Shown: positions 4,865 to 63,607, counted from the stretch's first letter. The stretch: 64,000 bases of DNA from Actinomycetes bacterium (GCA_036510875.1 DATCDE010000007.1:3055-67054); one strand, 5' to 3'. Program-made: numbers and translations. The notes: a model not told the origin generated them from the sequence alone.

Positions 4865-4865
4865 G

Positions 4866-42830: not shown

Positions 42831-42900
42831 CGTGCGCACCTCAGCGAGCCTAGGCGAGCAACGGCTGACCCGCTCGTCGGTGGGGTCGTAGCCTGCGGGC

Positions 42901-45276: not shown

Positions 45277-46279
45277 CCGGGCTGGCTTGCAGGGCGGCCA
45301 TCGAGCGGGCGGTCAGCTCGGCGACCAGGCGCTCCACGTGCTCGAGGGCGCCGGTGTCCTGGATGATCCGGCGCAGCTCGACGACCCGGTCCTGGTCCAG
45401 GTCCGGGTCGCCCAGGTCGGAGCGCAGCCGGGCCGCATCGGCCGGGGCGGCCCGGGCCAGCGCGGTCGTCACGAGCACGGTGCGCTTGCCCTCGCGCAGG
45501 TCGTCCCCGGCTGGCTTGCCGGTCTCCTCCGGGTCGCCGAACACCCCCAAGACGTCGTCCCTCAGTTGGAACGCCTCACCGAGCGGCAGCCCGTAGGCGG
45601 AGTAGGCCTCGAGCAGCTCCTGGCTCGCACCGGCGAGGGCCGCTCCGAGGTGCAGCGGCCGCTCGACGGTGTACTTGGCGCTCTTGTACCGGACCACCCG
45701 CATGGCCCGCTCGACCGACCCGCCGCCGAGGGCCTGCTCCAGCAGGTCCAGGTACTGCCCGGCCATCAGCTCGCTGCGCATGACGTCGAACACCGGCTTG
45801 GCGTGCAGCAGGGCGCCCGCGGGCAGCCCGGAGTCGAACAGCAGCTCGTCCGCCCAGGCCAGGCACAGGTCGCCCAGCAGGATCGCCGAGCCGACGCCGA
45901 AGTCCTCCGGCGATCCCAGCCAGCCGTGCCCCCGGTGCAGGGCGGCGAACCCGCGGTGCGCCGCGGGCTGGCCGCGCCGGGTGTCCGAGCGGTCCATCAC
46001 ATCGTCGTGGATCAGCGCGCAGGCCTGCAGCAGCTCCAGCGAGGCGGCCGCCCGGACGATCTGCTCGCTGTCCGCACCGCCGGCGCCGCGCCACGCCCAG
46101 TAGGCGAACGCCGGGCGCAGCCGCTTGCCGCCGGACAGCAGGGTCACGGCTGAGTCCAGCAGCGGGGCCAGGTCCTCGCTGATGCCCTGCAGCCGGGGGC
46201 CCTGGACGGCGAGGAACTCGTCCAGGGCCTTCTGCACCCGGGCTCTGAGGTCCTCGGCCTCCGTCGCAGTCCCGCCCAT
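45212..46279 (-). CDS. crtE: Polyprenyl diphosphate synthase (GGPP synthase, IdsA2/CrtE-like).
   Basis: LIHDDVMDRSDTRRG and FQLRDDVLGV aspartate-rich motifs. Confidence 0.85.
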   Translation of the reverse strand: MGGTATEAEDLRARVQKALDEFLAVQGPRLQGISEDLAPLLDSAVTLLSGGKRLRPAFAYWAWRGAGGADSEQIVRAAASLELLQACALIHDDVMDRSDTRRGQPAAHRGFAALHRGHGWLGSPEDFGVGSAILLGDLCLAWADELLFDSGLPAGALLHAKPVFDVMRSELMAGQYLDLLEQALGGGSVERAMRVVRYKSAKYTVERPLHLGAALAGASQELLEAYSAYGLPLGEAFQLRDDVLGVFGDPEETGKPAGDDLREGKRTVLVTTALARAAPADAARLRSDLGDPDLDQDRVVELRRIIQDTGALEHVERLVAELTARSMAALQASPVSAPARDVLGQLAVAATTRRG

Positions 46280-47284: not shown

Positions 47285-47926
47285 ATGAGCGAGCCCGCCA
47301 GCGTGTTCCCAGGGCCCAGCGTGACCGTCGTGGGCACCGGGACGGCCGCCGCGCCGCCCGACGTCGTGGTGCTCGACCTGGCCGCCGAGGCCGGCGCCCA
47401 GCATGCGGCCACCGCGCTGGGCGAGGCCGGCGCGGCGCTGACCCGGATGCGCGACGCGGCGCTCGTGGCCGGGGTCGAGCGGGCCGACCTGAGGTCGGCC
47501 GGCACCCAGCTGTGGCCGCAGACCGATCCGAAGGGCCGGCCGCTGGGCTACCGCGCCGTGCTGTCGCTGACCGTGCGGGTGCGGGAGCTGGCGGCCGCAT
47601 CCGAGCTGCTGCCGTCGCTGGTGGCGGCCGGTGGGGACGCCGCCCGGGTCCAGGGCACCCGGCTCGAGCACGACGACCTGGCCGCGCTGCACCGGGCGGC
47701 GCGGGACGCGGCGTTCGCCGACGCGAGGGGGCGGGCCGAGCAGTACGCCGGGCTGGCCGGTCGCGGGCTGGGCCCGGTGCTGGAGATCAGCGAGGCGCCG
47801 GTCCGTGGCGGCCCGGGGCCGATCAGCCCCCGGCTGGCGCTGATGGCCTCGGCGGAGGCGCTGCCCGTGGAGGCCGGGCTGTCCTCGGTCGAGGCGTCGG
47901 TCGTGGTCCGCTGGGGGCTGGCCTGA
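47285..47926 (+). CDS. SIMPL/DUF541 domain protein.
   Basis: 213 aa with the pattern ...AATALGEAGAALTRMRDAALVAGVERADLRS...VRVRELAAASELLPSLVAAGGD. Confidence 0.5.
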   Translation: MSEPASVFPGPSVTVVGTGTAAAPPDVVVLDLAAEAGAQHAATALGEAGAALTRMRDAALVAGVERADLRSAGTQLWPQTDPKGRPLGYRAVLSLTVRVRELAAASELLPSLVAAGGDAARVQGTRLEHDDLAALHRAARDAAFADARGRAEQYAGLAGRGLGPVLEISEAPVRGGPGPISPRLALMASAEALPVEAGLSSVEASVVVRWGLA

Positions 47927-48597
47927 GCCGTCCCGCGCCGCTGGGCCGCGACGAGTACCTGGCCCGGTGGTCGGGGCTGCACGGCGGGTACGACCCGGGC
48001 GCATCGGTCTGGGTGGGCGGCTGGCTGCGCCTGATGTACGCCGTGGCCCGTCCGTTCGCGGTGGCCGGGGTTCCTCCGGACGCCGTCACGCTGCTCGGGC
48101 TGGTCGCCGCCGGGGCGGTGGCCGCGCTCGCCTGGGCCGGCGCCGGCTGGCTGCTGCTGGCCGCGCTGGTGGTCGTGCTGTCCGGTGTCCTAGACGGCGT
48201 GGACGGCGCGGTGGCCGTGCTGACCGACCGGACCACCGCCTTCGGCTTCGTGCTCGACTCGCTGGTGGACCGTTGCTCTGACCTTCTGTACCTGTTGGCT
48301 TTGTACCTCGCCGGCGCTCCCGCATGGGTCTGCGTGGCCGCTGGGGTGGTCACCCTGCTGCACGAGTACGCCCGGGCCCGGGCCGCCGCCGGTGGGCTGC
48401 CCGACGTGGGCATGATCACGGTGGCCGAGCGGCCGACCCGGGTGATCGTCACCGCGCTGGCCCTGGCGCTCGCGGCGGCGGCGGCAGCTGACGGGGGTGC
48501 CGGACCCTGGGCGCAAGGGGGCGCGGTGGTGTGGCTGGTCCTCGGGGTCGTCGGCCTGGTCCAGCTGCTGGTCGTGCTGGGACGTCGGCTGCGCTGA
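47923..48597 (+). CDS. CDP-alcohol phosphatidyltransferase family protein. The start is uncertain.
   Basis: DGVDGAVAVLTDRTTAFGFVLDSLVDRCSD (D-G-x2-A-R...G...D-x3-D) and a TM-rich sequence. No ATG/GTG lies upstream of the conserved-looking RDEYLARWSGLHGG. Candidate starts are CTG 47923, GTG 48013 and ATG 48034. Confidence 0.6.
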   Translation: MSRPAPLGRDEYLARWSGLHGGYDPGASVWVGGWLRLMYAVARPFAVAGVPPDAVTLLGLVAAGAVAALAWAGAGWLLLAALVVVLSGVLDGVDGAVAVLTDRTTAFGFVLDSLVDRCSDLLYLLALYLAGAPAWVCVAAGVVTLLHEYARARAAAGGLPDVGMITVAERPTRVIVTALALALAAAAAADGGAGPWAQGGAVVWLVLGVVGLVQLLVVLGRRLR

Positions 48598-50155: not shown

Positions 50156-51658
50156 TCAGGCCGGGCCGATGAGCTCGGCGACGATCTCGGCGGACAGGCC
50201 CACGAGCGGCAGCCCGCCGCCGGGGTGGGCCGAGCCGCCCACGAGGAACAGCCTCGGCACCGGGCTGGCGTTGGCCGGGCGCAAGAACGCCGCCCTCGGC
50301 CCGTTGGACGACGTGCCGTAGATCGAGCCGCCCGGCGCCCTGGTGGCCCGCTCGAGGTCCGCGGGGGTACGGACCTCGTGCCACAGCAGCCGGTCCCGGA
50401 CGTCCAGCCCGCGCGCCGCCAGCACGGCGAGCACCCGGTCGGCGTACGCCTGGGCCAGACCGGGGGCGTCCCAGTCGACACCGTGCTCAGGGTCGTGTCG
50501 GGGCGCGTTGACGAGCACGAACCAGGACTCGTGCTCGGCGTCCGGGCGCATCGCCGGGTCGTCCGGCGCGCACACGTACACGGTGGGGTGCTCGACCGGG
50601 TGCGGCTGCGGCCCGAAGATCGCGTCGAACTCCGCGTCGTAGTCGGCGCTGAACACCACCGTGTGGTGCCGCAGTCCCGGCGTGCGGCCCCGGACGGCCA
50701 GCAGCAGCACGAAACCGGACAGCGAAGGGGTGGTCCTGGCCAGCCGGTCCAGCACGGGGGCCGCGACCGGGCGGGGGAGCAGGTCCCGGTACAGGTGGCT
50801 CGCATCGGCGTTGGCCACCACCACGTCCGCGGGCAACGTCTCGTCGTCGGCCAGCCGGACGCCGGACGCGCGGCCACCGTCCAGGGTCACCTCGACGGCA
50901 TCCGCGCCGAACCGGAAGCCGACCCCCCGGTCCAGGCAGCGGTCGTAGGTGGCCGTCGCCAGCCGGGCCAGGCCGCCGCCCACGTGCCAGGCGCCGAAGG
51001 TCTGCTCCACGTAGGGGATGGTGGCCAGCGCTGCGGGGGCCCGGCGCGGGTCGGAGCCGGCGTAGGTCGCGTACCGCTCGAGCAGCTGCCGCAGCCGCGG
51101 GTCGTGCAGGTACTGCCGACCGAGCCCGCGCAGCGAGGTGAATGGGGCCACCGTGCGCAGGTCGCGCAGCCGGATCGACTGCCGGACCAGCTGCCAGGGC
51201 CCGGTCAGCGGGCTGGTGAGGAACGGACGACGGGTCACCTGCCAGATGGCCGCTCCGCGGTCGACGAGCCCCGTCCACTGCTGTCCGGTTCCGGCGCCGA
51301 GTGCGGCGTCCAGGGCGTCGGCCGCGCCGTCCCGGGAGGCGTTGGGCAGCTCAACCGAGGTGCCGTCGGCGAACCGGTAGCCGAACGCCGGGTCGACCGG
51401 CACCAGCTCGACGTTGTCCTCCAGCGCCGCTCCGGCCCGGCGGACGGCGGTCTTGAGGAACAGGTCCCGGTAGACGGCGGGCAGCGTGAGCAGCGACGGG
51501 CCGGTGTCGAAGACGAAGCCGTCGCGCTGGTAGCTGGCCAGCTTGCCCCCGGGCGCGGTGGACCGCTCCACCACGGTCACCTGGTGCTTCGCCGCGGCGA
51601 GCCGGGCCGCCGCGGCGAGGCCGCCCATGCCGGCGCCGATCACCACCACCCTGGCCAC
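50156..51658 (-). CDS. crtD: Phytoene desaturase-family FAD oxidoreductase (CrtD/CrtI-like carotenoid desaturase).
   Basis: MARVVVIGAGMGGLAAAARLAAAKHQVTVVERSTAPGGK and a C-terminal CrtI-family segment. First gene of a carotenoid-modification block. Confidence 0.75.
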   Translation of the reverse strand: MARVVVIGAGMGGLAAAARLAAAKHQVTVVERSTAPGGKLASYQRDGFVFDTGPSLLTLPAVYRDLFLKTAVRRAGAALEDNVELVPVDPAFGYRFADGTSVELPNASRDGAADALDAALGAGTGQQWTGLVDRGAAIWQVTRRPFLTSPLTGPWQLVRQSIRLRDLRTVAPFTSLRGLGRQYLHDPRLRQLLERYATYAGSDPRRAPAALATIPYVEQTFGAWHVGGGLARLATATYDRCLDRGVGFRFGADAVEVTLDGGRASGVRLADDETLPADVVVANADASHLYRDLLPRPVAAPVLDRLARTTPSLSGFVLLLAVRGRTPGLRHHTVVFSADYDAEFDAIFGPQPHPVEHPTVYVCAPDDPAMRPDAEHESWFVLVNAPRHDPEHGVDWDAPGLAQAYADRVLAVLAARGLDVRDRLLWHEVRTPADLERATRAPGGSIYGTSSNGPRAAFLRPANASPVPRLFLVGGSAHPGGGLPLVGLSAEIVAELIGPA

Positions 51659-51686
51659 GCCAGGGATCCTCCCATCCGCGGGAGGC

Positions 51687-52805
51687 TCAGACCGGGCGGC
51701 CCTTCCACTGCAGCTCGCCGCGGCGCTTGCGCCGCCAGGACTGCGCGGCGAGGTACCCGAACAGGGTGACCGAGACCGGGTGGGCCAGCGCGTCCGGCCA
51801 GACCCGCCCGCCCACGCGCCGGGCCACCAGGGCCCGCCCGGCGACGCCCGCGGCGTACCCGGCCAGCCCGACCGGTGACCCGCGCAGCGCGGCCGCGGCC
51901 GGCAGCACGTAGGCCACCCCGAGACCGGCCATCACGGCGGCGGCGCCGGCCGGGGAGCCGAACGCCGACCACAGCGACTTGGCGTAGCCGGCCTCGAGGT
52001 CGGCCCACCCCTCGTACATCCGGCAGGTGGCGATCGCGGTGCCGTCGGCCACCGTCCCGCGCCCGCCCGAGCGCTTCACCGCGCGCATCAGCGCCACGTC
52101 GTCGAGCACCTCGCCGCGGACGGCGGCGTGCCCGCCGGCGGCCCGGTAGGCGCCCGCGTCGACCGCGATCAGCTGCCCGTTCGCGGCGGCGAGCGACTCC
52201 CGCGGCGACCGCTCGGCGGCACCCATCGGCAGCGTGGTCAGCCAGGACCACTGCAGCAGCGGCTGCACGAGCCGCTCGGCCACCGACCCGGTCAGCTGCC
52301 GCGGGTACGGCGAGACCAGGTCCAGCCCGGCCGAGCGCAGCAACGTCACGGTGGCGGCCACCGCGGTGGGGGCCAGCACCACGTCGGCGTCCACGAGGAC
52401 GAGCACGTCCCCGGTGGCCCGCTGCGCCAGCCGGTGGCAGGCCCACGGCTTGCCCAGCCAGCCGTCGGGCGGCGTGTCCTGGCCGCCGTCCAGCAGGGTC
52501 ACCCGGGGGTCGCCGGCCACGACCGACCGGACGACGTCGGCGGTGCCGTCAGCGGAGCCGTCGTCCAGCACCAGGATCTGCAGGTCCGGGACCCGCACCT
52601 GGGCGAGCAGCGACCGCAGGCACGGAGCCACCCGGCGGGCCTCGTCGCGCAGCGGCAGCAGCACGGACACCCGCTCGGTCACCGGGGCGGGGTCGACGGG
52701 TGGCACCCGCAGCCGCCGCAGGTTCACCGCCGTGTGCAGGGTTCCGGCCAGGGCGGCCGCCGATCCGGTGGTGACCGCCGCGCAGGTCAGTCCCGGCCGG
52801 ACCAC
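51687..52805 (-). CDS. Family-2 glycosyltransferase (carotenoid glycosyltransferase CruC/CrtX-like).
   Basis: VSVLLPLRDEARRVAPCLRSL, DDGSADGT, LVDADVVL (DxD). GTG start at 52805 overlaps the upstream gene end by 19 nt. Confidence 0.7.
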   Translation of the reverse strand: MVRPGLTCAAVTTGSAAALAGTLHTAVNLRRLRVPPVDPAPVTERVSVLLPLRDEARRVAPCLRSLLAQVRVPDLQILVLDDGSADGTADVVRSVVAGDPRVTLLDGGQDTPPDGWLGKPWACHRLAQRATGDVLVLVDADVVLAPTAVAATVTLLRSAGLDLVSPYPRQLTGSVAERLVQPLLQWSWLTTLPMGAAERSPRESLAAANGQLIAVDAGAYRAAGGHAAVRGEVLDDVALMRAVKRSGGRGTVADGTAIATCRMYEGWADLEAGYAKSLWSAFGSPAGAAAVMAGLGVAYVLPAAAALRGSPVGLAGYAAGVAGRALVARRVGGRVWPDALAHPVSVTLFGYLAAQSWRRKRRGELQWKGRPV

Positions 52806-53587
52806 AGCACCCAGGCGTAGGGGACGGCGACGACGCCCATGGCGATGCCGCCGTAGAGGGCCACCGCCGGGCGGTCGAAGAAGAACGCGTTGGCCACCAC
52901 CGAGGACACGTAGGTCCACAGGAACAGGAAGGCCGGCTGGCCGTCCGGCGCGCTGCGCCGAGGCAGCCGGTCGAGCAGCAGCATCATGACCAGCGCGGTG
53001 ACGAACCAGCCCAGGAAGTTGCTGGCCGGCACCCCCGGCACGTTCCGCAGCACCAGCCCGGGGTTGGTGAAGGTCCAGTAGCGCTCGCCGGTCATCATCG
53101 GGTCGAGGAAGAGGTCCCAGGAGGACAGCGCCAGGGCGCCGAGCAGCGGGGTGACCACGGCGGAGCGGGACAGCCTCCGGGCCGCGATCAGCGCGGGGTA
53201 GGCCATCATCGCCCAGGCCAGCGGGATCAGCCAGGGCACCCCGAGCACGGTCGCCCCCAGCGCGGTGCCGTACTCGTAGTGGCCGAACGGCAGCCCGGTG
53301 CGCACCCCCACGGCCTCGACCGCCAGCCCGCCCCCCACGGTGACCAGCAGGTACCAGGCGGACCACCAGGGGCCCCGCCAGATCAGCGCGTGGAACGCGG
53401 AGGCCAGGAAGAACGTGACGACGGTCGCCACGGTGACGTCGCGGCGGGCGTCACCGTGCACCAGCGGGAACGCGATCTCTAGCCCCACCACGCTGAGGGC
53501 GAGCAGCCACGGCAGCCACCGCACCAGCCCCGAGCGGCCGTGGTGGCGGTGGTCTGCGTGCGGGCCCGAGTATGACCGGACGCTCAC
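52787..53587 (-). CDS. cruF: Carotenoid biosynthesis membrane protein (DUF422/CruF-like; the family includes carotenoid 1,2-hydratase).
   Basis: About 266 aa polytopic membrane protein in an operon with the desaturase and GT2. Family assignment is by context and pattern only. Confidence 0.5.
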   Translation of the reverse strand: MSVRSYSGPHADHRHHGRSGLVRWLPWLLALSVVGLEIAFPLVHGDARRDVTVATVVTFFLASAFHALIWRGPWWSAWYLLVTVGGGLAVEAVGVRTGLPFGHYEYGTALGATVLGVPWLIPLAWAMMAYPALIAARRLSRSAVVTPLLGALALSSWDLFLDPMMTGERYWTFTNPGLVLRNVPGVPASNFLGWFVTALVMMLLLDRLPRRSAPDGQPAFLFLWTYVSSVVANAFFFDRPAVALYGGIAMGVVAVPYAWVLWSGRD

Positions 53588-53644
53588 CGGTCACCTGCCC
53601 GGCCTGGTTGCCATCCGGTCACGAGGGGGCAGCCTAGGCGACGA

Positions 53645-54355
53645 TCAGCGGGGCACGCGTATCGAGACCCCACCGAACGTCCCGCCGGCCTCCACGACGG
53701 CGAGCCGGGCGAACAGCTCCTCGGCGTACCAGCCGACCTCTGGCGTGCGGGCGACCACGGCCTGGTGCTCGGGCGTGCGGTGCGCGAAGGCGGTGAGAGC
53801 GTCGGGCGAGTCCCACAGGCTGAAGGTGCCTTGCAGGCCGACCGGGGCCTCGCCGATGCCGGTGGCCAGCAGCAGACCGGGGGTCCGCTTCAGCCGCTCG
53901 CTCACCGGCGGGACGGCCCGCCAGAACGTCGCCATCGACTGCGGCCGCAGCCGGGCCCGGGTGATCGCTGCCGTGGGCCCGTCGTGCCGCCCGGGCGCCG
54001 GGACGCCGAACGGCCGCCGTCCGGCCCAGGTGCCCCTGCTGGCCAGCGGGCGCATGGCCACGTGCAGCCGCTCGAAGGAGCGCCGCTGCCAGGACCGCAC
54101 GACGGCGGAGTCGTCGAACGCGTCGGCGTCCGCGGTGCTCGCCCAGGTGGCCAGCAGCCCCCAGTGGTGGACGTCGGCGTCGCGCGGGGTGAAGGTTCGG
54201 CCGTCGCCGGTGCCCAGCAGCTTGGCGAACCGCAGCCCGGGCGTGCGCCGGACCGGACGCCGGTCCAGCCCCATGTGCAGCAGGGCCGCGGGGACGGCTC
54301 GGGCGGCCACCCCCCACAGGTCGAGGGTGACCAGCGCCGGTACCTCGTCGGGCAC
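53645..54355 (-). CDS. CrtA-like protein (spheroidene monooxygenase family) / hypothetical.
   Basis: RTPGLRFAKLLGTGDGRTFTP, RGTWAGRRPF, FWRAVPPVS, GLQGTFSLWDSPDALTAF and GWYAEELFARLAVVE parallel Rhodobacter CrtA motifs as I remember them. Confidence 0.45.
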   Translation of the reverse strand: MPDEVPALVTLDLWGVAARAVPAALLHMGLDRRPVRRTPGLRFAKLLGTGDGRTFTPRDADVHHWGLLATWASTADADAFDDSAVVRSWQRRSFERLHVAMRPLASRGTWAGRRPFGVPAPGRHDGPTAAITRARLRPQSMATFWRAVPPVSERLKRTPGLLLATGIGEAPVGLQGTFSLWDSPDALTAFAHRTPEHQAVVARTPEVGWYAEELFARLAVVEAGGTFGGVSIRVPR

Positions 54356-54519
54356 GGCGATCAGCGTACGGCGCCCGCGGCCCGGCCCTCCCCTGAGACC
54401 GTGGCCGGACCCGCGGCGCCGCCTCCCTCACGATCGCCGTCCGCGCGGGACCTGGCGGCCGCGACACCCGAGGGCGCGGACCGGTTCGTCGACCTGCTGG
54501 CGGTGCTCGCCCTGCTCGC

Positions 54520-55810
54520 GTGATGCTGGGCCACTTCCTGATGGCCGCCGTCGTGGTCGCCCCGGACGGCCGGGCCACCGTGACGAACACGCTCGTCCTG
54601 GTCCCCTCGGCCCAGCTGCTGACCTGGCTGTTCCAGGTGATGCCGTGGTTCTTCGCGGTCGGCGGCTTCGCCCACGCGGTCGCGCTCGGCTCACTGGCCG
54701 GCCGCGACGGCAGCTACGCCGACTTCGTGCACGCGCGCGGACCGCCTGCTGGTGCCGACGATCGCGTTCGCGGGGACCGGGCTGGTCGCGGGCGTGGTGG
54801 TCGAGGCGCTCGGGCGGCTGGACGACCGCGCCGTGATGGTGCTGCGGATCGTGGCCCAGCCGCTGTGGTTCATCGGGATCTACCTCGGCGTGGTCGCGTT
54901 CGCCCCGTGGATGCTGCCGGCCCACCGGCGGTTCGGCGTCCGGGTCCTCGTCGTGCTCACGGCCCTGGTCGCCGTCGTGGACGTGCTGCGGATCGGGCTG
55001 GACCTGCCCTACGTGGGCTCCCTGAACTTCGCGTTCGTCTGGCTGGTGGTGCACCAGTGCGGGTTCCTCTACGCGGACGGCGGCCCGCAGCGGGGCGGCC
55101 GGCGGTTCGCGCTGACGCTCGCGGGGGTGGGTCTGGTGCTCACCGTCGCGCTGGTGGCACTCGGCCCGTACCCGCGGTCGATGGTGGCGCTGCCCGGTGA
55201 GACGACGTCCAACATGACGCCGTCGTTCGCGCTGCTGACGTTCTCGGCCTGGCTGCTCGGCCTGGCCCTGCTGCTGCGCCCCGCGCTTACCCGGCTGATG
55301 GCCGGCCGCGGACCGTGGACGGTCGTCGTCGCGGCCAGCGGCGTGGCCATGACCGCATTCCTGTGGCACCTCACCGCGATCACCATGGTGAGCGGCGGTC
55401 TGCTGCTGTCGGGCGGGCCGTTCTTCCCCGACGTCGGCAGCGTGTCCTGGTGGCTGCTGCGGCTGGTGTTCCTGCTGCTCGTCGTCGCGGTGCTGACCGT
55501 GCTGGTGGCGCTGTTCCGGCGGTTCGAGCGGCCGCGCCGGCTGGTCGTTCCGCCGCCGGGGCAGCGACGCGCGCACCGCGACGGGCTGGCCGCGCTCGGC
55601 CTGGCCCTCTCGCTGCTCGGCGTCCTGGGCTTCTCGGTGGCCGGGTTCGCCGGCGTGCTGTCGCGGCGGACGGCGACGCTGGTCGTGCTGCCGATGACCC
55701 CGGCGGTGGCCGCGCTGCTGCTCGGCCTGGGCGCCCTGCTGGTGCGCTGGGCGGCGGCGCCGGTCAGCCGGCGTCGCTCGTCCGGTCCGTCGTCCGGTCC
55801 AGCAGCCTGA
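54520..55810 (+). pseudogene. Acyltransferase family 3 membrane protein. It is interrupted by a frameshift near 54730 (ORFs 54520..55200 and 54752..55810 in different frames).
   Basis: Frame 1 encodes the N-terminal TM segment (MLGHFLMAAVVVAPDGR...FVHA). A +1 frame continues with PTIAFAGTGLVAGVVVEAL... and about 9 further TM helices. The break is in a GCGCGCGG run. Confidence 0.6.
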
Positions 55811-56561
55811 GCACGGCACCGGGGGCGTCCCACTGCGGGACGTGCCCGCAGTGCGGCAGCACCACCCACTGGGCGTGGGCCGGCAGCAGCGACCGCTCCT
55901 GGGTGGACCGGGCGGGCAGCACGTGGTCGCGGTCGCCCCACACGGCGGTGACCGGGACGTCGGAGGGGATCGAGCCGGCCCGGTCGAAGCGGAGCCCCAG
56001 GGTGCCGTCGAGGGCGGCCGGGTAGCCGGAGGCGTCGGTCTGGGCGCGGGCCGCCTCCAGCGCGACGTCGTAGGGGATCTGCGCAGGCCAGGCGGACACC
56101 GAGGCGAAGGCCAGCCGGCGTAAGGCCCGCGACCGCAGCACCACCGGCTGGACCCCGCGGGTGGCCCTGGCCGCGACCCGGTTCACCCGGACCACCGGGT
56201 TGCGCCGCTGGCTGGGGCGCAGCCACAGCCCGGCCGGGGCCAGCGTGGTCACCGACCGGGCCCGGCCGTCGGCCGCCAACTCCAGGCTGACCCAGCCGCC
56301 CAGGGAGTTGCCGAGCAGGTGCGGGCGGTCCCAGCCGAGGTGGTCGAGCAGGGCCCCGACGGTCCTGGCCAGCCGGGCCGGCGTGGCCGGCTCGGTGCGC
56401 GGCAGCGCCGGGGAGCGCCCATGACCGGGGAGGTCGACCGCAACGACGTCGTAGCGGGCGGCCAGCCGCGGGAGCAGCGGGTCCCAGGTGGTGGCTGCCG
56501 AGCCCAGTCCGTGGACGAGGAGCAGCGGGGGTCCGGACCCCTGGCGGGTGTGGGCCAGCAC
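55764..56561 (-). CDS. Alpha/beta-fold hydrolase.
   Basis: LLLVHGLGSAATTW, GNSLGGWVSL (GxSxG), and a C-terminal HCGHVPQ. Confidence 0.75.
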   Translation of the reverse strand: MLAHTRQGSGPPLLLVHGLGSAATTWDPLLPRLAARYDVVAVDLPGHGRSPALPRTEPATPARLARTVGALLDHLGWDRPHLLGNSLGGWVSLELAADGRARSVTTLAPAGLWLRPSQRRNPVVRVNRVAARATRGVQPVVLRSRALRRLAFASVSAWPAQIPYDVALEAARAQTDASGYPAALDGTLGLRFDRAGSIPSDVPVTAVWGDRDHVLPARSTQERSLLPAHAQWVVLPHCGHVPQWDAPGAVLRLLDRTTDRTSDAG

Positions 56562-56567
56562 CGTCGG

Positions 56568-57041
56568 TCAGCCGACCTCGGCGGGCTGGCCACCGGTGAT
56601 GCGCAACAGCTCGTCGTAGGACGTCGGGAACACCGTGTGCGGGTGCCCGGCCGCGGCCCAGACCACCGGGTGGCGGGCCAGGTCGACGTCGACGAGGGTG
56701 CGCAGGGGGTGCGGGTGCCCCACCGGCGCGACGCCGCCGATCGCCATGCCGGTGTGCTTGCGGACGAAGTCGGCGTCGGCCCGCCTCACCTGGGCCACCC
56801 CGAGGACCGAGGCGACCTTGAGGGTGTCCACCCGGTGCGCGCCCGAGGTCATGACGAGCAGGGGCTGCCCGTCGGCCTCGAAGACCAGCGAGTTCGCGAT
56901 GGCGCCGACCTCGCAGCCGAGCTGGGCCGCGGCCGCCGCAGCGGTCGGCGCGGCGTCGTCCAGCGCGATGGGGTCGCCGGTGGCCCCGACCGCGCGCAGC
57001 GCCTCGGTGACCCGGACGACCGTGGGGTGGTTCAGCGCCAT
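56568..57041 (-). CDS. ybaK: YbaK/ProX-type aminoacyl-tRNA deacylase.
   Basis: 157 aa with TVKSLVFEA-like ...GAIANSLVFEADGQPLLVMTSGAHRVD... Confidence 0.65.
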   Translation of the reverse strand: MALNHPTVVRVTEALRAVGATGDPIALDDAAPTAAAAAAQLGCEVGAIANSLVFEADGQPLLVMTSGAHRVDTLKVASVLGVAQVRRADADFVRKHTGMAIGGVAPVGHPHPLRTLVDVDLARHPVVWAAAGHPHTVFPTSYDELLRITGGQPAEVG

Positions 57042-57118
57042 GGCCGCAGCCTAGGGGGCCTTGACGGGTTGTCGCCGCCCCGGAGTATGGTCGAACACAT
57101 GTTCGAAGCAGGTGCTCG

Positions 57119-57430
57119 GTGACCCGACGCTACGCGGACCCGGTGCGCGACGCCGTCGACGTCCGCCGCGACCAGTCCGGCCAACGTCCGGTCCAGTTCC
57201 TGTGGCGGGGCCGGCTGTACCTCGTGCGCGACGTGCTGGCGCACTGGGTCGAGGTCGGGGCCTGGTGGCGGCAGCGCGGCGCCGACGGGCTGCCCGTGCG
57301 GGTCGACGAGGCGGGCCGGCAGGTGTGGCGGGTGGAGGCCGGGGCCGGCCGGGCCGCGGCGTCCGGGGTCTACGACCTCGCCTACGACGAGAGCGCGCGG
57401 ACGTGGACCCTCGCCCGCACGCTGGACTGA
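57119..57430 (+). CDS. Small conserved actinobacterial protein (DUF6504-like) paired with the downstream HEPN gene.
   Basis: 103 aa, Trp/Arg-rich (FLWRGRLYLVRDVLAHWVEVGAWWRQ). GTG start. 12-bp gap to the next gene. Confidence 0.45.
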   Translation: MTRRYADPVRDAVDVRRDQSGQRPVQFLWRGRLYLVRDVLAHWVEVGAWWRQRGADGLPVRVDEAGRQVWRVEAGAGRAAASGVYDLAYDESARTWTLARTLD

Positions 57431-57442
57431 CCGGGAGGGACT

Positions 57443-57883
57443 GTGGAGATGCCCGTGGTGATGCCCGTCGTCATTCCCAGGGCGCCCGTGGGGCCGGCGT
57501 CCCACGAGCTGCTCGAGGCGGCCCGGCGCGGACTGGTCGAGGCGGCCACCGCGCCCACCCCGGCCGAGCGGTACGTCGCGGCGCACCTGGCGGCGCTGCG
57601 GGCGGCCGCTGCGGTGCTGGCCGCACGGGCCCGGCCCGGCAGTGCCCGGCGCGGCCCGCGCAGCGCCTGGGAGCTGCTGCCCCAGGTGGCACCCGAGCTC
57701 AGCGAGTGGGCCGCGTTCTTCGCCGCGGGGGCGGGCAAGCGGGCCGCCGCAGAGGCCGGACTGACCAGGGCGGTCAGCGCCCGCGAGGCCGACGACCTGC
57801 TGCGCGACGCCGCGACCTTCCTCGCACTGGTGGCCACCACCCTCGGGGTGCCGCACCAGGACACCTTCCCGCTGGTGGGCTGA
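57443..57883 (+). CDS. SAV_6107-family HEPN-domain protein.
   Basis: SHELLEAARRGLVEAATAPTPAERYVAAHLAALRAAAAVLAARAR matches my recollection of the SAV_6107 HEPN family N-terminus. Confidence 0.5.
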   Translation: MEMPVVMPVVIPRAPVGPASHELLEAARRGLVEAATAPTPAERYVAAHLAALRAAAAVLAARARPGSARRGPRSAWELLPQVAPELSEWAAFFAAGAGKRAAAEAGLTRAVSAREADDLLRDAATFLALVATTLGVPHQDTFPLVG

Positions 57884-57911
57884 CCGGGCTCGATGGCGGG
57901 GCCAGCGCAAC

Positions 57912-57921
57912 GGTTGCAACC
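57912..57921. promoter_or_regulatory. Perfect 10-bp palindrome GGTTGCAACC upstream of coxM.
   Basis: Seen in sequence in the 163-bp region between the HEPN gene and coxM. Confidence 0.3.
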
Positions 57922-57995
57922 GATTGCATGGGAGATCGCCGTGAACTGGCCCCGATCCGTTGCCGTGGCCGGATCGACAGGGCACAGTGGGCGGA

Positions 57996-58011
57996 TGTGG
58001 CGTACGCCACA
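57996..58011. promoter_or_regulatory. Perfect 16-bp palindrome TGTGGCGTACGCCACA about 36 bp upstream of the coxM start. Candidate operator.
   Basis: Seen directly. The position is typical of a repressor or activator site for the cox operon. Confidence 0.45.
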
Positions 58012-58046
58012 TTCTCCTGACCCTGAGACCGGCCAGAGGGGACAGC

Positions 58047-58919
58047 ATGCAGACACCCGCGGAGATCGACTACGCGCGAGCGAGCAGTGTCGACCAAGCG
58101 ATCGCCTTGCTCGAGGAACACGGTGAGGATGCGCGGATCATCGCGGGTGGGCACAGCCTGCTGCCGATGATGAAGCTGCGCCTGGCCCGGCCTGAGTGGA
58201 TCATCGACATCAACGACCTGCACGAGCTGCGGGCCATCCGGGTCGAGAGCGGGGAGCTCGTGCTCGGCGCCCTGACCCGGCACGCCGACGTGCTCGAGTC
58301 ACCCGTCGTGGGCGAGCACTATCCGATCCTGATCGACGCCGAGCGGGTCATCGCCGACCCGGTCGTGCGCAACCGGGGCACGGTGGGCGGCTCGTTCTGC
58401 CAGGCCGACCCTGCGGAGGACCTCGCCGCCGTCGGCTCGGCGCTGCGGGCGAACGTCGTCATCCGCTCCTCCAGCGGCACCCGCACGGTGCCGGCCCGGG
58501 AGTTCCACACCGGCCCCTACGAGACCGAGGTCGGCCCGGCCGAGCTGCTCGTCGAGGTGCGCATCCCGATCCGGCCGTCCGCGGGCAGCGCCTACGAGAA
58601 GGTCGAGCGTCGGGCCGGTGACTGGGCGATCGCCGCGGCCGGTGCCTTCGTCGAGCTGTCCGGCGGCGTGGTCTCGGACGTCGGCATCGGACTGTCCGCG
58701 GTCGGGGCCCGGCACTACTGCGCGGCCGAGGCCGAGGAGTTCCTGCGCGGCCAGGCGCCCACCCCGGAGAACCTGGCCGAGGCCGGGCGGATCGCGGCCG
58801 AGCACTGCTCGCCGACGTCCGACCAGCGGGGGCCGGTCGACTACAAGCGCCATCTCGTCGGCGAGCTGACGAAACGAGCACTGAGCCGATCGCTCGAGCG
58901 AGCTGGAGGGGGAGCCTGA
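58047..58919 (+). CDS. coxM: CO dehydrogenase medium (FAD-binding) subunit CoxM.
   Basis: IIAGGHSLLPMMKLRLARP, VRNRGTVGGS FAD-binding motifs, and a CO_deh_flav_C-like C-terminus. RBS AGAGGGGA. Confidence 0.85.
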   Translation: MQTPAEIDYARASSVDQAIALLEEHGEDARIIAGGHSLLPMMKLRLARPEWIIDINDLHELRAIRVESGELVLGALTRHADVLESPVVGEHYPILIDAERVIADPVVRNRGTVGGSFCQADPAEDLAAVGSALRANVVIRSSSGTRTVPAREFHTGPYETEVGPAELLVEVRIPIRPSAGSAYEKVERRAGDWAIAAAGAFVELSGGVVSDVGIGLSAVGARHYCAAEAEEFLRGQAPTPENLAEAGRIAAEHCSPTSDQRGPVDYKRHLVGELTKRALSRSLERAGGGA

Positions 58920-59404
58920 TGCAGGTCACCATGACGGTCAACGGCACGCAGGTCACGCGTGACGTCGAGCCGCGGATGCTGCTCGTGCACTTCGTGCGCG
59001 ACGAGCTGCGACTGACCGGCACCCACTGGGGCTGCGACACCTCCAACTGCGGCACCTGCGTGCTGTGGGTGGACGGCGAGCCGGTGAAGAGCTGCACGGT
59101 GCTCACGGTGATGGCCGACGGCCACGAGGTCACCACCGTGGAGGCCCTGGCGAAGGGCGGCCAGCTGGACCCGGTGCAGCAGGGGTTCATGGAGGAGCAC
59201 GGACTGCAGTGCGGCTTCTGCACCCCCGGGATGATGATGACCGCCCGCTGGCTGCTGGACCGCAACCCGGACCCGGACGAGGGCACCATCCGCGAGGCCA
59301 TCTCCGGGCAGATCTGCCGCTGCACCGGCTACGAGAACATCGTCCGCGCCATCCGCTGGGCGGCCGAGCACCCCGCACCGGCCAATGAGGAGGTCCAGGC
59401 ATGA
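58919..59404 (+). CDS. coxS: CO dehydrogenase small (2Fe-2S) subunit CoxS.
   Basis: CDTSNCGTCVLWVDG and QCGFCTPGM...CRCTGY Cys clusters. Confidence 0.9.
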   Translation: MQVTMTVNGTQVTRDVEPRMLLVHFVRDELRLTGTHWGCDTSNCGTCVLWVDGEPVKSCTVLTVMADGHEVTTVEALAKGGQLDPVQQGFMEEHGLQCGFCTPGMMMTARWLLDRNPDPDEGTIREAISGQICRCTGYENIVRAIRWAAEHPAPANEEVQA

Positions 59405-61803
59405 CCGCCGTCGACGAGACCCCCGCCGTACCGATCAGCGCGGCCGGCAACCCCATCGGCTTCGGCCGGATGCTCCGCAAGGAGGACGTCCGGTTCGTCC
59501 GCGGCCACGGCAACTACGTCGACGACATCGCGCTGCCCGGGATGCTGCACGCGGCGATCCTGCGCAGCCCGTTCGCGCACGCGAAGATCGTGTCGATCGA
59601 CACCTCGGCCGCTGAGGCGCACCCGAAGGTCAAGGCGGTCATCACGGGCAAGATCCTGGAAACCCTCAAGCTGGCCTGGATGCCCACCCTGTCGATGGAC
59701 GTCCAGGCGGTGCTGGCGACCGACAAGGTCCGCTTCCACGGCCAGGAGGTCGCCTTCGTGGTGGCCGAGGACAAGTACTCCGCCCGGGACGCCCTCGAGC
59801 TGATCGACGTCGAGTACGAGCCGCTGCCCGCCGTCGTCGACGCCAAGAAGTCGCTCGACCCCGGTGCGCCGGTGATCCGCGACGACATCGAGGGCAAGAC
59901 CGACAACCACATCTTCGACTGGGAGGCCGGCGACAAGGCGTTGGCCGACGAGGTGTTCGCCAACGCCGAGGTTGTCGTCAGCCAGCAGATGCTCTACCCG
60001 CGGGTGCACCCCAGCCCGATGGAGACCTGCGGCACGGTCGCCAGCATGGACCCGATCACCGGCAAGCTCACCGTCTGGTCCACCAACCAGGCGCCGCACG
60101 CGCACCGGACGCTGTACGCGATCGTGGCCGGCATCCCCGAGCAGAAGATCCAGATCATCTCGCCGGACATCGGCGGCGGCTTCGGCGGCAAGGTCGGCAT
60201 CTACCCCGGCTACGTGCTCGCGGTGGTCGGCTCGATCGTCACCGGCCAGCCGGTCAAGTGGGTCGAGGACCGCAGCGAGAACCTCATGTCCACCGCGTTC
60301 GCCCGTGACTACCACATGAACGGCTCGATCGCGGCGACACGCGACGGCAAGATCCTCGGTCTGCGGGTCGACGTGCTCGCCGACCACGGCGCGTTCAACG
60401 GGACGGCGCAGCCGACCAAGTTCCCGGCCGGCTTCTTCCACATCTTCACCGGCAGCTACGACCTGCAGGCCGCGCACTGCAAGGTCACCGGCGTCTACAC
60501 CAACAAGGCGCCCGGCGGCGTCGCCTACGCCTGCTCGTTCCGGGTCACCGAGGCGGTGTACCTGGTCGAGCGCATGGTCGACGTCCTGGCCGACGAGCTC
60601 GGCATGGACCCGGCCGAGCTGCGGCTGAAGAACCTGCTGCGCCCCGAGCAGTTCCCGTACACCACCAAGACCGGTTGGGAGTACGACTCCGGCGACTACC
60701 CCCGTGCCCTGCGCAAGGCCATGGACATGGTCGGCTACGACCAGCTGCGGGCGGAGCAGGCCGAGAAGCGGGCCCGCGGCGAGCTCATGGGCATCGGGAT
60801 CAGCTTCTTCACCGAGGGCGTGGGCGCCGGCCCGCGCAAGCACATGGACATCCTCGGGCTGGGCATGGCCGACGGCTGCGAGCTTCGGGTGCACCCCACC
60901 GGCAAGGCGCAGATCCGGCTCAGCGTGCAGACCCAGGGCCAGGGCCACGAGACGACGTTCGCGCAGATCGTCTCGCACGAGCTCGGGATCCCGCCCGAGG
61001 ACGTCGAGGTGATCCACGGGGACACCGACAACACCCCCTTCGGCCTGGGCACCTATGGGTCGCGCTCGACGCCGGTGTCCGGCGCCGCCGCGGCGGTGGT
61101 GTCCCGGCGGATCAGGGACAAGGCCCGGATCATCGCGGCGGCCGCCCTCGAGGTCTCGGTCGACGACCTGGAGTGGGAGCTCGGCCGCTGGTACGTCAAG
61201 GGCGACCCGGACAAGGGCAAGACGATCAGCGAGATCGCTATGCTCAGCCACGGCGTCCTCGAACTGCCGGAGGGGGTCGAGGGCCACCTCGACGCCTCGG
61301 TGGTCTACGACCCGCCGAACCTCACCTATCCGTTCGGGGCCTACATCTGCGTCGTCGACGTCGACCCGGGCACGGGTGTGGTCAAGGTGCGCCGGTTCGT
61401 CGCGGTCGACGACTGCGGGCCGCGGATCAACCCGATGATCGTCGAGGGCCAGGTGCACGGCGGCCTGGCCGACGGTGTGGGCATGGCGCTCATGCAGCTC
61501 ATGGCGTTCGACGAGAACGGCACCCACCTCGGCGGGTCGTTCATGGACTACCTGCTGCCCAGCTCGATGGAGTGCCCGAGCTGGGAGACTGGCGAGACCG
61601 TGACCCCGTCCCCGCACCACCCGCTGGGGGTCAAGGGGGTGGGCGAGTCGGCCACGGTGGGCTCGCCGCCCGCGGTCGTCAACGCGATAATCGACGCGCT
61701 GGAGCCGTACGGTGTCCGGCACGCCGACATGCCGCTGACCCCGGCCAACGTGTGGCTGGCCATGCAGGGCCGGCAGCTGCGCAACGACCTCGCCGTGCCG
61801 TGA
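59401..61803 (+). CDS. coxL: CO dehydrogenase large (molybdopterin) subunit CoxL, form-I-like, with a variant active-site loop.
   Basis: 800 aa xanthine-dehydrogenase-family MoCo subunit. The active-site loop GGVAYACSFR matches the form I VAYRCSFR motif except R->A. Gene order M-S-L is the form I order. Confidence 0.85.
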   Translation: MTAVDETPAVPISAAGNPIGFGRMLRKEDVRFVRGHGNYVDDIALPGMLHAAILRSPFAHAKIVSIDTSAAEAHPKVKAVITGKILETLKLAWMPTLSMDVQAVLATDKVRFHGQEVAFVVAEDKYSARDALELIDVEYEPLPAVVDAKKSLDPGAPVIRDDIEGKTDNHIFDWEAGDKALADEVFANAEVVVSQQMLYPRVHPSPMETCGTVASMDPITGKLTVWSTNQAPHAHRTLYAIVAGIPEQKIQIISPDIGGGFGGKVGIYPGYVLAVVGSIVTGQPVKWVEDRSENLMSTAFARDYHMNGSIAATRDGKILGLRVDVLADHGAFNGTAQPTKFPAGFFHIFTGSYDLQAAHCKVTGVYTNKAPGGVAYACSFRVTEAVYLVERMVDVLADELGMDPAELRLKNLLRPEQFPYTTKTGWEYDSGDYPRALRKAMDMVGYDQLRAEQAEKRARGELMGIGISFFTEGVGAGPRKHMDILGLGMADGCELRVHPTGKAQIRLSVQTQGQGHETTFAQIVSHELGIPPEDVEVIHGDTDNTPFGLGTYGSRSTPVSGAAAAVVSRRIRDKARIIAAAALEVSVDDLEWELGRWYVKGDPDKGKTISEIAMLSHGVLELPEGVEGHLDASVVYDPPNLTYPFGAYICVVDVDPGTGVVKVRRFVAVDDCGPRINPMIVEGQVHGGLADGVGMALMQLMAFDENGTHLGGSFMDYLLPSSMECPSWETGETVTPSPHHPLGVKGVGESATVGSPPAVVNAIIDALEPYGVRHADMPLTPANVWLAMQGRQLRNDLAVP

Positions 61804-62708
61804 GGACCGACGTGGTCGCCGAGCGGGCCGCTGCGCTGCGGGCGCAGCGGGTCCCGTTCGTGCACGCCCGGGTGGTGCTGGCCGAGCGTCCGACGTCGGC
61901 CAAGCCGGGGGCCGAGGCCGTGATCTTCGCCGACGGCACCATCGAGGGATTCGTGGGGGGGACCTGCGCCGAGTCGACCGTGCGGGCGCAGAGCCTGGCC
62001 CTGCTCGACTCGGGGGAGCCGCTGCTGCTGCGGATCTGCCCCGAGCCGGAAGCTCCCCAGCCGGGGCGGCTGACCGTGCACAACCCGTGCCTGTCGGGAG
62101 GCACTCTGGAGATCTTCCTGCAGCCGGTGATACCGGCGCCGCTGCTCGTGGTGGTGGGCGAGACCCCCATCGCGGCTGCGCTGGCTGAGCTCGCGGCGGC
62201 CTTGGGCTACCAGGTCGAGCGCCGTGACCCCCGGAACGGCGTGGACGTGGTGCCCGAGGTCGCCGCGGCCGTGGTGGTGGCCTCGCACGGCCGCGACGAG
62301 GAGCCGGTGCTCGCCGCGGCACTGCAGGCGGGCACGCCGTACGTGGGGCTGGTCGCCAGCCGCAAGCGGGGGGAGGCGGTGCTCCTCTCCCTCGACGTCG
62401 ACGCGGCGGCCCGCACCCAGGTGCACACCCCGGCCGGCCTGGACATCGGGGCCCGCACCCCGGAGGAGGTCGCCCTGTCGATCCTGGCCGAGGTGGTGTC
62501 CGAGCGGCGCCGCCCGTCCGGCCGGCCGATCACGCTGGACCTCGAGCCGGTCGGCCCGGCCACGGCCATCGACCTGATCTGCGGCATGTCGGTGGCGATG
62601 GTCGACTCCTCGCTGCACCTGGACCACGAGGGCACCCGCTACTGGTTCTGCGGCAGCGGCTGCCTGCGTGCGTTCGCCGCCGACCCGGCCAGCTACGTCC
62701 CGGCGTGA
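61800..62708 (+). CDS. XdhC/CoxI/CoxF-family MoCo-insertion accessory protein fused to a C-terminal YHS/TRASH metal-binding domain.
   Basis: N-terminal XdhC_CoxI and Rossmann-like segments. The C-terminus CGMSVAMVDSSLHLDHEGTRYWFCGSGCLRAF is a YHS-type motif. GTG start overlaps the coxL stop. Confidence 0.7.
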   Translation: MRTDVVAERAAALRAQRVPFVHARVVLAERPTSAKPGAEAVIFADGTIEGFVGGTCAESTVRAQSLALLDSGEPLLLRICPEPEAPQPGRLTVHNPCLSGGTLEIFLQPVIPAPLLVVVGETPIAAALAELAAALGYQVERRDPRNGVDVVPEVAAAVVVASHGRDEEPVLAAALQAGTPYVGLVASRKRGEAVLLSLDVDAAARTQVHTPAGLDIGARTPEEVALSILAEVVSERRRPSGRPITLDLEPVGPATAIDLICGMSVAMVDSSLHLDHEGTRYWFCGSGCLRAFAADPASYVPA

Positions 62709-63607
62709 CCGACGCCCTGGGCGACCTGGCCGCGCTGGTCCCGGACGTCGCCTCGCTGCGCCAGCGGCTGGGGGACGCCGGCTACCTGGCCGACTCGGGG
62801 CTGGCCACGGCGTTGTTCTGCGCCGTCCGGCTGCCCCAGCCGCTGCTGCTCGAGGGGGAGGCGGGGGTCGGCAAGACCCAAGCCGCGAAGGCGCTGGCCG
62901 AGGTGCTGGACACCCGGCTCATCCGGCTGCAGTGCTACGAGGGCATCGACGCGGCCGAGGCGCTGTACGAGTGGAACTACCCGCGGCAGCTGCTGGGGAT
63001 CCGGCTGGCCGAGGCGCGCGGCGGCCCGGTGGCCGAGGAGGACCTGTTCGGCCGGGACTACCTGGTGCGCCGGCCGCTACTCGAGGCGATCGAGCATGCC
63101 GGCCCGCGGCCGGCCGTGCTGCTCATCGACGAGGTGGACCGCGCCGACGAGGAGTTCGAGGCGTTCCTGTTCGAGCTGCTCGCCGAGGCGGCCATCACGA
63201 TTCCCGAGCTGGGCACGGTGCGGGCCGAGCGGCCGCCGCTCGTGGTGCTCACGTCCAACCGCACCCGCGACCTGCACGACGCGCTCAAGCGGCGCTGCCT
63301 GTACCACTGGATCGACTACCCCGACCTCGACCGGGCCATCGAGATCATCCGGCGGCGGGTGCCGGGGGCGACCCTCGACATCACGGCCGGGGCGGCCGCG
63401 GCCGTGGGCCGGCTGCGGGCGCTCGACGTCCAAAAGCCGCCGGGGGTGGCCGAGGCGATCGACTGGGTGCAGGCGCTGACCCTGCTCGGCGTGCAGACCC
63501 TCGACGGCGAGGCCGCCGAGCAGACGCTGGGGTCGGTGCTGAAGTACCGCGAGGACCACGACGTCGCCCGTGAGCGCGGGCTGGCCTGGGTGACCGGGAG
63601 TGGCTGA
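62705..63607 (+). CDS. coxD: MoxR-like AAA+ ATPase CoxD.
   Basis: LLLEGEAGVGKTQAAKALA Walker A, LLIDEVDRADEE Walker B, and the AAA_3 pattern. Confidence 0.85.
   Translation: MTDALGDLAALVPDVASLRQRLGDAGYLADSGLATALFCAVRLPQPLLLEGEAGVGKTQAAKALAEVLDTRLIRLQCYEGIDAAEALYEWNYPRQLLGIRLAEARGGPVAEEDLFGRDYLVRRPLLEAIEHAGPRPAVLLIDEVDRADEEFEAFLFELLAEAAITIPELGTVRAERPPLVVLTSNRTRDLHDALKRRCLYHWIDYPDLDRAIEIIRRRVPGATLDITAGAAAAVGRLRALDVQKPPGVAEAIDWVQALTLLGVQTLDGEAAEQTLGSVLKYREDHDVARERGLAWVTGSG

Follow-up and report, generated by a model that had tools for sequence, protein, structure and literature searches.

A conserved crtA-cruF-GT2-crtD operon predicted to tailor a carotenoid glycoside, next to an acyltransferase-3 pseudogene, in an uncultured actinomycete lineage

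The DNA considered here is a stretch of 64,000 nucleotides (nt) from an Actinomycetes bacterium (GCA_036510875.1, DATCDE010000007.1:3055-67054), referred to below as the window, and our subject is the group of putative carotenoid-tailoring genes at its positions 50156 to 55810, together with the disrupted acyltransferase-3 (AT3) gene beside them. Since the window has a G+C content of 67-77% and raw lists of its open reading frames (ORFs) consist mostly of spurious frames, genes were called by GC3 frame analysis, that is, from the GC content of third codon positions. This gives four minus-strand genes and one plus-strand ORF (54752..55810) in the interval, and independent gene callers on identical public metagenome contigs (L085, L086) made the same calls, including a glycosyltransferase of 372 amino acids (aa). 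The five coding regions named in the initial annotation of this DNA (a crtD-like desaturase, a family 2 glycosyltransferase or GT2, a CruF-like protein, a CrtA-like protein and an AT3 ORF) are thus all present at or near the positions it had given. They are listed here with an alpha/beta-fold hydrolase gene that lies beyond the positions of that annotation:

53645..54355, minus strand: crtA-like monooxygenase, 236 aa (NF045923), first gene of the tailoring operon
52787..53587, minus strand: cruF-like membrane protein, 266 aa (PF04240), predicted carotenoid 1',2'-hydratase
51687..52805, minus strand: GT2 glycosyltransferase, 372 aa, CruG/CruC-like (PF00535)
50156..51658, minus strand: crtD-like FAD desaturase, 500 aa (TIGR02734, NF045637), predicted 1-hydroxycarotenoid 3',4'-desaturase
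54401..55810, plus strand: acyltransferase-3 pseudogene, divergent from crtA, with the remnant ORF 54752..55810
55764..56561, minus strand: alpha/beta-fold hydrolase, 265 aa (PF00561)

The four minus-strand genes had been described as an operon with overlapping stops and starts. This holds for cruF and the GT2 gene, where the GTG at 52805 creates an overlap of 19 nt, but the other two junctions are gapped, by 57 nt between crtA and cruF and by 28 nt between the GT2 gene and crtD. Rfam gave no match at the gathering threshold anywhere in the window, that is, no riboswitch or other known RNA regulator.

The initial annotation had taken the product of 53645..54355 for a relative of CrtA and the DUF422 protein for a relative of CruF, and the family searches bear out both. 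The first is matched by NF045923 (spheroidene monooxygenase) with an E-value of 1.5e-49 over model positions 18-225 of 226, which makes it a full-length homologue; no Pfam family matched it. The second scores 130 bits against PF04240 (Caroten_synth, the former DUF422; cut-off 25) over profile positions 5-186 of 209, and is matched by TIGR03460 (CruF) at an E-value of 1e-38. The desaturase and the glycosyltransferase are likewise supported by family matches. The crtD-like protein reaches 333 bits with TIGR02734 (crtI_fam, cut-off 238), and its best sub-model is NF045637 (CrtD) at 358 bits (E-value 7e-107). As the model of the CrtO ketolase gives no more than 55 bits, we read the protein as a desaturase rather than a ketolase. 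By way of comparison, the crtI product encoded elsewhere in the window gives 494 bits with TIGR02734 and a lower score, 263 bits, with the CrtD model. The GT2 product matches PF00535 with 62.8 bits (cut-off 23.3, E-value 5e-17), so that the catalytic domain of this family is present.

For the CrtA-like protein an AlphaFold model was also examined (mean predicted local distance difference test score, pLDDT, 89.6; predicted template modelling score, pTM, 0.88), and this consists of two tandem ferredoxin-like alpha+beta-barrel repeats. In structure comparison the best fold overlap is with the haem-containing aldoxime dehydratase (template modelling score, TM, 0.58-0.62), and further significant matches are to ABM-type monooxygenases, haem-binding HmoB and the chlorite-dismutase group. 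Because of these overlaps the modelled protein is probably a haem-dependent oxygenase of alpha+beta-barrel fold, and His197, which is the sole invariant histidine of the CrtA-like alignment A1, would be a candidate haem ligand. Relatives of CrtA are given as carotenoid 2-hydroxylases or 2-ketolases in those passages of PMC5822342 that cite earlier work.

Genes that could supply a C40 carotene to these enzymes lie elsewhere in the window, as had been proposed, and all were found by family matches:

37250..37588 and 37585..37926, plus strand: crtYc and crtYd, heterodimeric lycopene beta-cyclase (PF18916; TIGR03462, 76.6 and 41.7 bits, cut-off 39.4)
37931..38914, minus strand: crtB phytoene synthase (PF00494, E-value 9e-73; NF045686, 207 bits)
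41340..43058, minus strand: crtI phytoene desaturase (TIGR02734, 494 bits, cut-off 238)
45212..46279, minus strand: polyprenyl synthase, crtE/idsA-like, for geranylgeranyl diphosphate or GGPP (PF00348, E-value 1e-52; several GGPP and farnesyl diphosphate synthase models, all below their equivalog cut-offs)

In the Pfam scan of the genes called here there was no crtU, crtZ, crtW or crtO, and the genes called and scanned across the whole 64 kb included no opsin or blh that would point to a rhodopsin-antenna context.

The AT3 ORF needs to be considered separately. Its product matches PF01757 with 42 bits, covering only profile positions 121-322 of 326, and the N-terminal third that it lacks lies upstream, at 54401..54738, separated from it by two deletions that shift the frame. 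A DNA alignment (A2) against the contigs L081, L082 and L084 places these deletions, of 1 nt after 54519 (CTCGC-GTGATG) and of 2 nt at about 54738 (GCGCGC--GGACC). The segment 54401..54519 is in the frame of the remnant ORF, while 54520..54738 is in the -1 frame and thus puts 73 codons, including the conserved VMLGH and MPWFFAVGGF motifs, out of frame. Before disruption the gene (54401..55810) would have encoded roughly 470 aa, with its start 45 nt from that of the divergent crtA. An intact 451-aa orthologue (L008) aligns continuously over the three segments, which tblastn splits between frames 3, 2 and 3, and relatives of about 96% nucleotide identity carry an intact gene of 471 aa. Conceptual repair extends the PF01757 match to positions 3-322 of 326 (69 bits), like that of intact relatives of 451-460 aa; in the ORF as it stands in the window, the AT3 domain of about 10 transmembrane helices, with its N-terminal histidine-containing helix, is not intact.

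Sequencing or assembly error was considered as an explanation for these frameshifts and rejected. Relative to the 96%-identical contig L081, no net indels other than the two deletions occur over 3.1 kb, crtA, cruF and the GT2 gene having none. Three short-read assemblies made independently from different samples carry the same frameshifted allele (L085-L087, two of them ENA MEGAHIT-style and the third a Logan assembly of another run), at 99.94-100% identity over 4-7 kb and with no gaps. Given this reproduction, and the intact gene in relatives, the AT3 of the window organism is a genuine pseudogene at the level of the population. The initial annotation was therefore right to place a divergent AT3 reading frame here, with a PF01757 match, but there is no intact gene, and the annotation of an AT3 beside the operon is corrected to that of a pseudogene.

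We then consider how widely the arrangement is shared. A CrtA-like monooxygenase had been thought unusual in an actinobacterium, and this proves mistaken, since more than 5,800 proteins are related to the CrtA-like one at E<1e-5. In a scan of one genome per species, a relative was present in at least 522 GTDB species genomes, and a survey of Micromonospora genomes reports crtA as well as the sioxanthin cluster throughout that genus (PMC5765111). Synteny was examined by tblastn with the window proteins at the best 80 of these 522 or more CrtA loci. The 80 come from Nanopelagicales (acI), Frankiales, Kineosporiaceae, Motilibacteraceae, Jiangellales and Nocardioidaceae, as well as Geodermatophilus, Blastococcus, Quadrisphaera, Kineosporia and many metagenome-assembled genomes of Actinomycetes. 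In most of them crtA, cruF, the GT2 gene and crtD follow one another in that order on one strand, with ybaK usually on one side and a CDP-OH transferase, MTHFR, GGPP synthase (GGPPS) and crtI on the other. The fuller order seen at most of the 80 is ybaK-(alpha/beta hydrolase)-crtA-cruF-GT2-crtD-...-CDP-OH transferase-(SIMPL)-MTHFR-GGPPS-crtI-(crtB-crtYd-crtYc). The module sits in a conserved ybaK...MTHFR-idsA chromosomal region, whose equivalent in M. tuberculosis we take to be Rv2172c-Rv2176.

The nearest species-representative genome has a CrtA identity of only about 66-68%, and in the region 51752..58810 the contigs ENA ERZ27294245 k141_168112 and Logan SRR3985421_10012 are 100% identical to the window and ERZ27294341 k141_57768 is 99.94% identical. 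Identical contigs in several metagenomes, together with the distance of the nearest genome, point to a lineage of uncultured actinomycetes that turns up in more than one sample.

We consider it probable that the block is a crtA-cruF-GT2-crtD operon, the GT2 being cruG/cruC-like, which acts on a C40 carotene made by genes elsewhere in the window to yield a plectaniaxanthin glycoside, with the AT3 as a pseudogene alongside. Judged from the gene set, the most likely product would be a gamma-carotene-derived 1',2'-dihydroxy-3',4'-didehydro glycoside of the phleixanthophyll type. In the proposed pathway, GGPP synthase, CrtB and CrtI would provide lycopene by way of phytoene, and CrtYc/Yd would close one ring to give gamma-carotene. 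CruF would then hydrate the open psi end at its 1',2' double bond to leave a 1'-hydroxyl, CrtD would introduce the 3',4' double bond, and the CrtA-like enzyme, using O2, would add a 2'-hydroxyl. Finally, the GT2 would transfer a hexose from a nucleoside diphosphate sugar to the 1'- or 2'-hydroxyl; that its acceptor is a carotenoid we infer from its setting in the operon, where it overlaps cruF and the order of the genes is conserved. The oxygenated and glycosylated carotenoid of the initial annotation, likened there to sioxanthin and salinixanthin, is accordingly upheld as a prediction by the homology of the four enzymes, by the conserved synteny and by an earlier prediction for the acI lineage (10.1101/367102).

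Several observations weigh against this assignment in its details. The equivalog cut-offs are missed by all four tailoring proteins: the crtD-like protein has 358 bits where NF045637 asks for 580, the CrtA-like protein 168 bits where NF045923 asks for 300, and the cruF-like protein 133.3 bits against 154.7 for TIGR03460, 59 against 400 for NF045693 and 55 against 300 for NF041333. The GT2 product reaches 118 bits with NF045692 (CruG, cut-off 600) and slightly more, 129 bits, with the model of the hopanoid-associated HpnB (TIGR03469), also below its cut-off. By sequence, then, the four are members of their families whose exact functions may differ, and the CrtA-like protein is a CrtA homologue whose score stays below the level at which the function of Rhodobacter CrtA, that of a spheroidene ketolase, would be expected. 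This enzyme could act as a 2'-ketolase instead of a hydroxylase. The sugar may be carried on 1'-O or, as in a glycoside of the deoxymyxol type, on 2'-O. The degree of cyclisation may also differ, in which case the product could be an acyclic oscillol-type diglycoside, and a crtU, crtO or crtZ outside the window would change the other end group. The GT2-crtD-cruF-crtA pathway as a whole is a prediction from genes.

The remaining question is acylation, which the initial annotation had allowed for by way of the AT3. In the window organism the pseudogene cannot supply it, and AT3 homologues also occur at the corresponding chromosomal site of a genome that lacks crtA and cruF there, and elsewhere in unrelated surroundings, so that the suggestion finds no support. 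More generally the tie between AT3 and the carotenoid operon is doubtful, the evidence being mixed and mostly negative. AT3 enzymes typically O-acylate sugars, and besides the close spacing at the locus itself, the divergent pairing with crtA (45-85 nt between starts) is kept down to about 55% AT3 identity (L008, L084, L088, L089 and L092). The longest contigs among the AT3 and CrtA matches agree in size (15,110, 20,550 and 5,509 nt), which suggests that these contigs are shared. Against this, an AT3 homologue accompanies crtA at only 4 of the 80 loci, homologues of 69% and 59% identity lie in unrelated contexts, and that of Actinomadura alba (L093) is flanked by GGPPS and MTHFR in a neighbourhood that has ybaK but neither crtA nor cruF, from which the adjacency of AT3 and crtA looks like a shared chromosomal neighbourhood. 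To our knowledge, the characterised carotenoid-glycoside acyltransferases, CruD and staphylococcal CrtO, belong to families other than AT3.

Of the other explanations, the one that survives best is that the AT3 served to acylate a glycolipid or glycan of the cell envelope and was a mere neighbour of the crt operon, its decay being unrelated to pigment chemistry; we put this a little short of an even chance. An MptA/MptB-like mannosyltransferase (39725..41374) and a CDP-alcohol phosphatidyltransferase (about 47900..48597) are in the neighbourhood, and with such envelope-lipid genes close by, a role in envelope acylation is at least as likely for the AT3 as one in pigment. The Actinomadura alba homologue keeps its place by GGPPS and MTHFR in the absence of the crt tailoring genes, and some homologues are annotated as 'surface polysaccharide O-acyltransferase-like' or 'fucose 4-O-acetylase-like'. 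The tight divergent pairing in several lineages, however, would also fit a role in pigment.

Alternatively, the sugar may be esterified by the alpha/beta hydrolase at 55764..56561, the counterpart of the acI 'acyltransferase', to give a glycoside ester without any part for the AT3, which we regard as unlikely, though it deserves to be kept in view. If the sugar is esterified, this hydrolase would be the remaining local candidate, and a better one than the AT3. It matches PF00561 (E-value 3e-27) with its catalytic triad (serine in GNSLG, Asp, His) intact, and at 10 of the 80 loci, among them the two acI loci (Candidatus Nanopelagicales; L031, L055) that have the gene, a homologue immediately precedes crtA in the same orientation. 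The acI homologue has been proposed as an acyltransferase and is described as co-transcribed with crtA (10.1101/367102), and phleixanthophyll palmitate occurs in Nocardia (PMC5884252). However, the families that it matches best comprise hydrolases and lactonases (AcoC-like, PcaD, BioH), in each case short of the cut-off, and a homologue is missing from most crtA loci. Within the window the AT3 pseudogene, in opposite orientation, stands between it and crtA, while only a 6-nt gap parts it from ybaK, to which it is coupled, so that co-expression with the operon is not evident. The possibility that other lineages keep a different, conserved acyltransferase in the gap from ybaK to crtA was examined and rejected, as the contents of this gap vary and are unrelated to acylation: they include a GDPD/PAP2/LPG-synthase-TM trio, a formate-nitrite transporter, a major facilitator superfamily (MFS) transporter, a 3'-phosphoadenosine 5'-phosphosulfate (PAPS) reductase, an enolase-like protein, an AlkZ-like protein and, in one locus, a GNAT protein. 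As a separate observation, no gene is called at the expected hydrolase site (11416..12175) of L088, a 96%-identical long-read relative, which has an extra base near window position 55854; this may be a long-read error or a reciprocal loss, with the AT3 intact and the hydrolase broken, the opposite of the window.

It is rather improbable that the intact AT3 paired with crtA in relatives is a third, undescribed type of carotenoid-glycoside acyltransferase beside CruD and staphylococcal CrtO, and that the window organism recently lost this step through the two frameshifts and makes a de-acylated pigment variant within a natural population. We give little weight to a keto-carotenoid serving as a rhodopsin antenna, as considered for acI, with the CrtD-like protein a CrtO-type ketolase, the CrtA-like protein a source of a 2'-keto group, or both. 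Purple-bacterial CrtA is a ketolase, and the acI paper left the choice between CrtD and CrtO open (10.1101/367102); the window protein, however, prefers the CrtD to the CrtO model by the scores given above, and the scanned genes of the window included no opsin or blh. Least probable of all is an acylated glycoside of the salinixanthin or phleixanthophyll-ester type with the AT3 of the window itself esterifying the sugar, for although the pairing with crtA and the usual chemistry of AT3 enzymes speak for it, the frameshifts put the N-terminal third, with the conserved histidine and the FFxxxG motifs, out of frame in an allele found in three assemblies.

We therefore return to the crtA-cruF-GT2-crtD operon with a neighbouring pseudogene. 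This is an ordinary, widespread and already-described actinobacterial carotenoid-tailoring operon, and the block adds one more case of this recognised carotenoid-glycoside operon, from a high-GC, uncultured lineage; it opens no long-standing question to new tests. What the synteny does show is that the acI 'actinoxanthin' operon belongs to a syntenic module found far more widely among Actinobacteria.

Around the carotene-supply genes some further features were recorded. The 549-aa polytopic membrane protein encoded at 39725..41374 on the minus strand overlaps the crtI stop by 35 nt and has no Pfam match, and it was considered as a new carotenoid enzyme. This was rejected, as it matches the models for MptA/MptB alpha-1,6-mannosyltransferases (TIGR03459, 198 bits; NF038066, 167 bits, cut-off 40) and so is an envelope gene; homologues lie near crtI in L071 and L078, and its position presumably corresponds to that of Rv2174 (mptA) beside idsA2 in M. 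tuberculosis. An Rv2175c-like winged helix-turn-helix gene (36409..36756, plus strand) is followed by a PNPOx-like gene (36771..37253, plus strand) whose stop overlaps the start of crtYc (37250), an arrangement suggestive of translational coupling between a flavin/F420-type protein and the lycopene cyclase. The interval from crtB to the mptA-like gene holds a barstar-like gene (38917..39336, plus strand), for which no barnase partner was found, and a small FHA-domain gene (39409..39720, plus strand).

Further away, a pair of DUF6504 and HEPN_SAV_6107 genes (57119..57883, plus strand) stands beside ybaK, as also in L088 and L092, and the Actinomadura alba locus keeps the HEPN_SAV_6107 gene. It is followed by a CoxMSL-type molybdenum hydroxylase cluster (57960..63607, plus strand) with FAD, 2Fe-2S and molybdenum cofactor (MoCo) subunits and XdhC/CoxI-like and AAA (CoxD-like) accessory genes. 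Tad/Flp-type pilus genes at 2997..10278 and 16331..17950, both on the minus strand, encode TadB/C-like T2SSF proteins (one with a VWA domain), a TadA ATPase, a ParA-like ATPase, RcpC/CpaB and a TadE/G-like protein, in a region of slightly lower G+C (0.67-0.69). A class I-beta 3-deoxy-D-arabino-heptulosonate 7-phosphate (DAHP) synthase ORF with an FXD domain (28194..29801, minus strand) stays open for about 190 codons past its catalytic domain, antisense through the gene for the methylguanine methyltransferase Ogt (28257..28775, plus strand), so that a stop has been lost or a frameshift lies near its 3' end; a second DAHP synthase, of class II, is at 25412..26734.

It remains to set the block beside known systems. 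The myxol glycoside pathway (cyanobacterial CruF and CruG, and the CrtA-OH 2'-hydroxylase of Flavobacterium P99-3) and that of salinixanthin (Salinibacter and Rhodothermus) likewise use CruF, CrtD, a CrtA-type hydroxylase and a GT2 on the psi end. They differ in that the sugar of myxol glycosides is on 2'-O and their ring bears a 3-hydroxyl, and in that salinixanthin contains a 4-keto group and its acyltransferase is of the CruD type; no homologues for the 3-hydroxyl step, or for either of the latter two, were found in the window. Compared with the enzymes of these pathways the window proteins also fall below all NCBIfam equivalog cut-offs.

Sioxanthin of Salinispora, another actinobacterial glycosylated C40 carotenoid, has the same psi-end chemistry as predicted here, with a 1'-glucosyloxy group, a 2'-hydroxyl and 3',4'-didehydro unsaturation (PMC6025630, PMC5884252). 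It differs in its aromatic phi ring, the formation of which needs CrtU; no crtU was among the scanned genes of the window. The sioxanthin genes of Salinispora are reportedly scattered in sub-clusters, at least as outlined by Richter, Hughes & Moore in 2015. Closer in structure is the phleixanthophyll group, since phleixanthophyll, 4-ketophleixanthophyll and phleixanthophyll 6-O-palmitate, which occur in Mycobacterium phlei and Nocardia (PMC5884252), combine a beta ring with the 1'-glucoside-2'-ol-3',4'-didehydro psi end, optionally 6-O-acylated, that is predicted for the window. These compounds are known by their chemistry and the window product is predicted from genes; the predicted structure matches a pigment known since the 1960s to which the searched literature has assigned no genes.

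The nearest system in gene content is the acI operon 'acyltransferase-crtA-cruF-cruG-crtD', which lies upstream of crtE-crtI-crtB (Dwulit-Smith et al. 2018, 10.1101/367102). Metatranscriptome reads span its intergenic regions, its 'acyltransferase' is described as co-transcribed with crtA and as carrying the annotation of a CoA methyl esterase, and its product, named 'actinoxanthin', was predicted from bioinformatics as a gamma-carotene-derived hydroxylated glycoside ester (10.1101/367102); in the searched literature this product, like that of the window, is a prediction from genes. Nanopelagicales loci were recovered among the relatives at 55-61% CrtA identity. Compared with the published acI operon and with L031 and L055, the window has the same four tailoring genes in the same order on one strand, upstream of crtE-crtI-crtB, the same heterodimeric crtYc/Yd and, in the gene at 55764..56561, a homologue of the alpha/beta-hydrolase-type partner upstream of crtA. 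It differs from acI in the AT3 pseudogene that stands in opposite orientation between this hydrolase and crtA, in the lack of opsin and blh among its scanned genes and in the high GC content of its genome (about 72-76%). The predicted core of the window pigment is nonetheless the 'actinoxanthin' core of acI, and would be the beta-ring analogue of sioxanthin.

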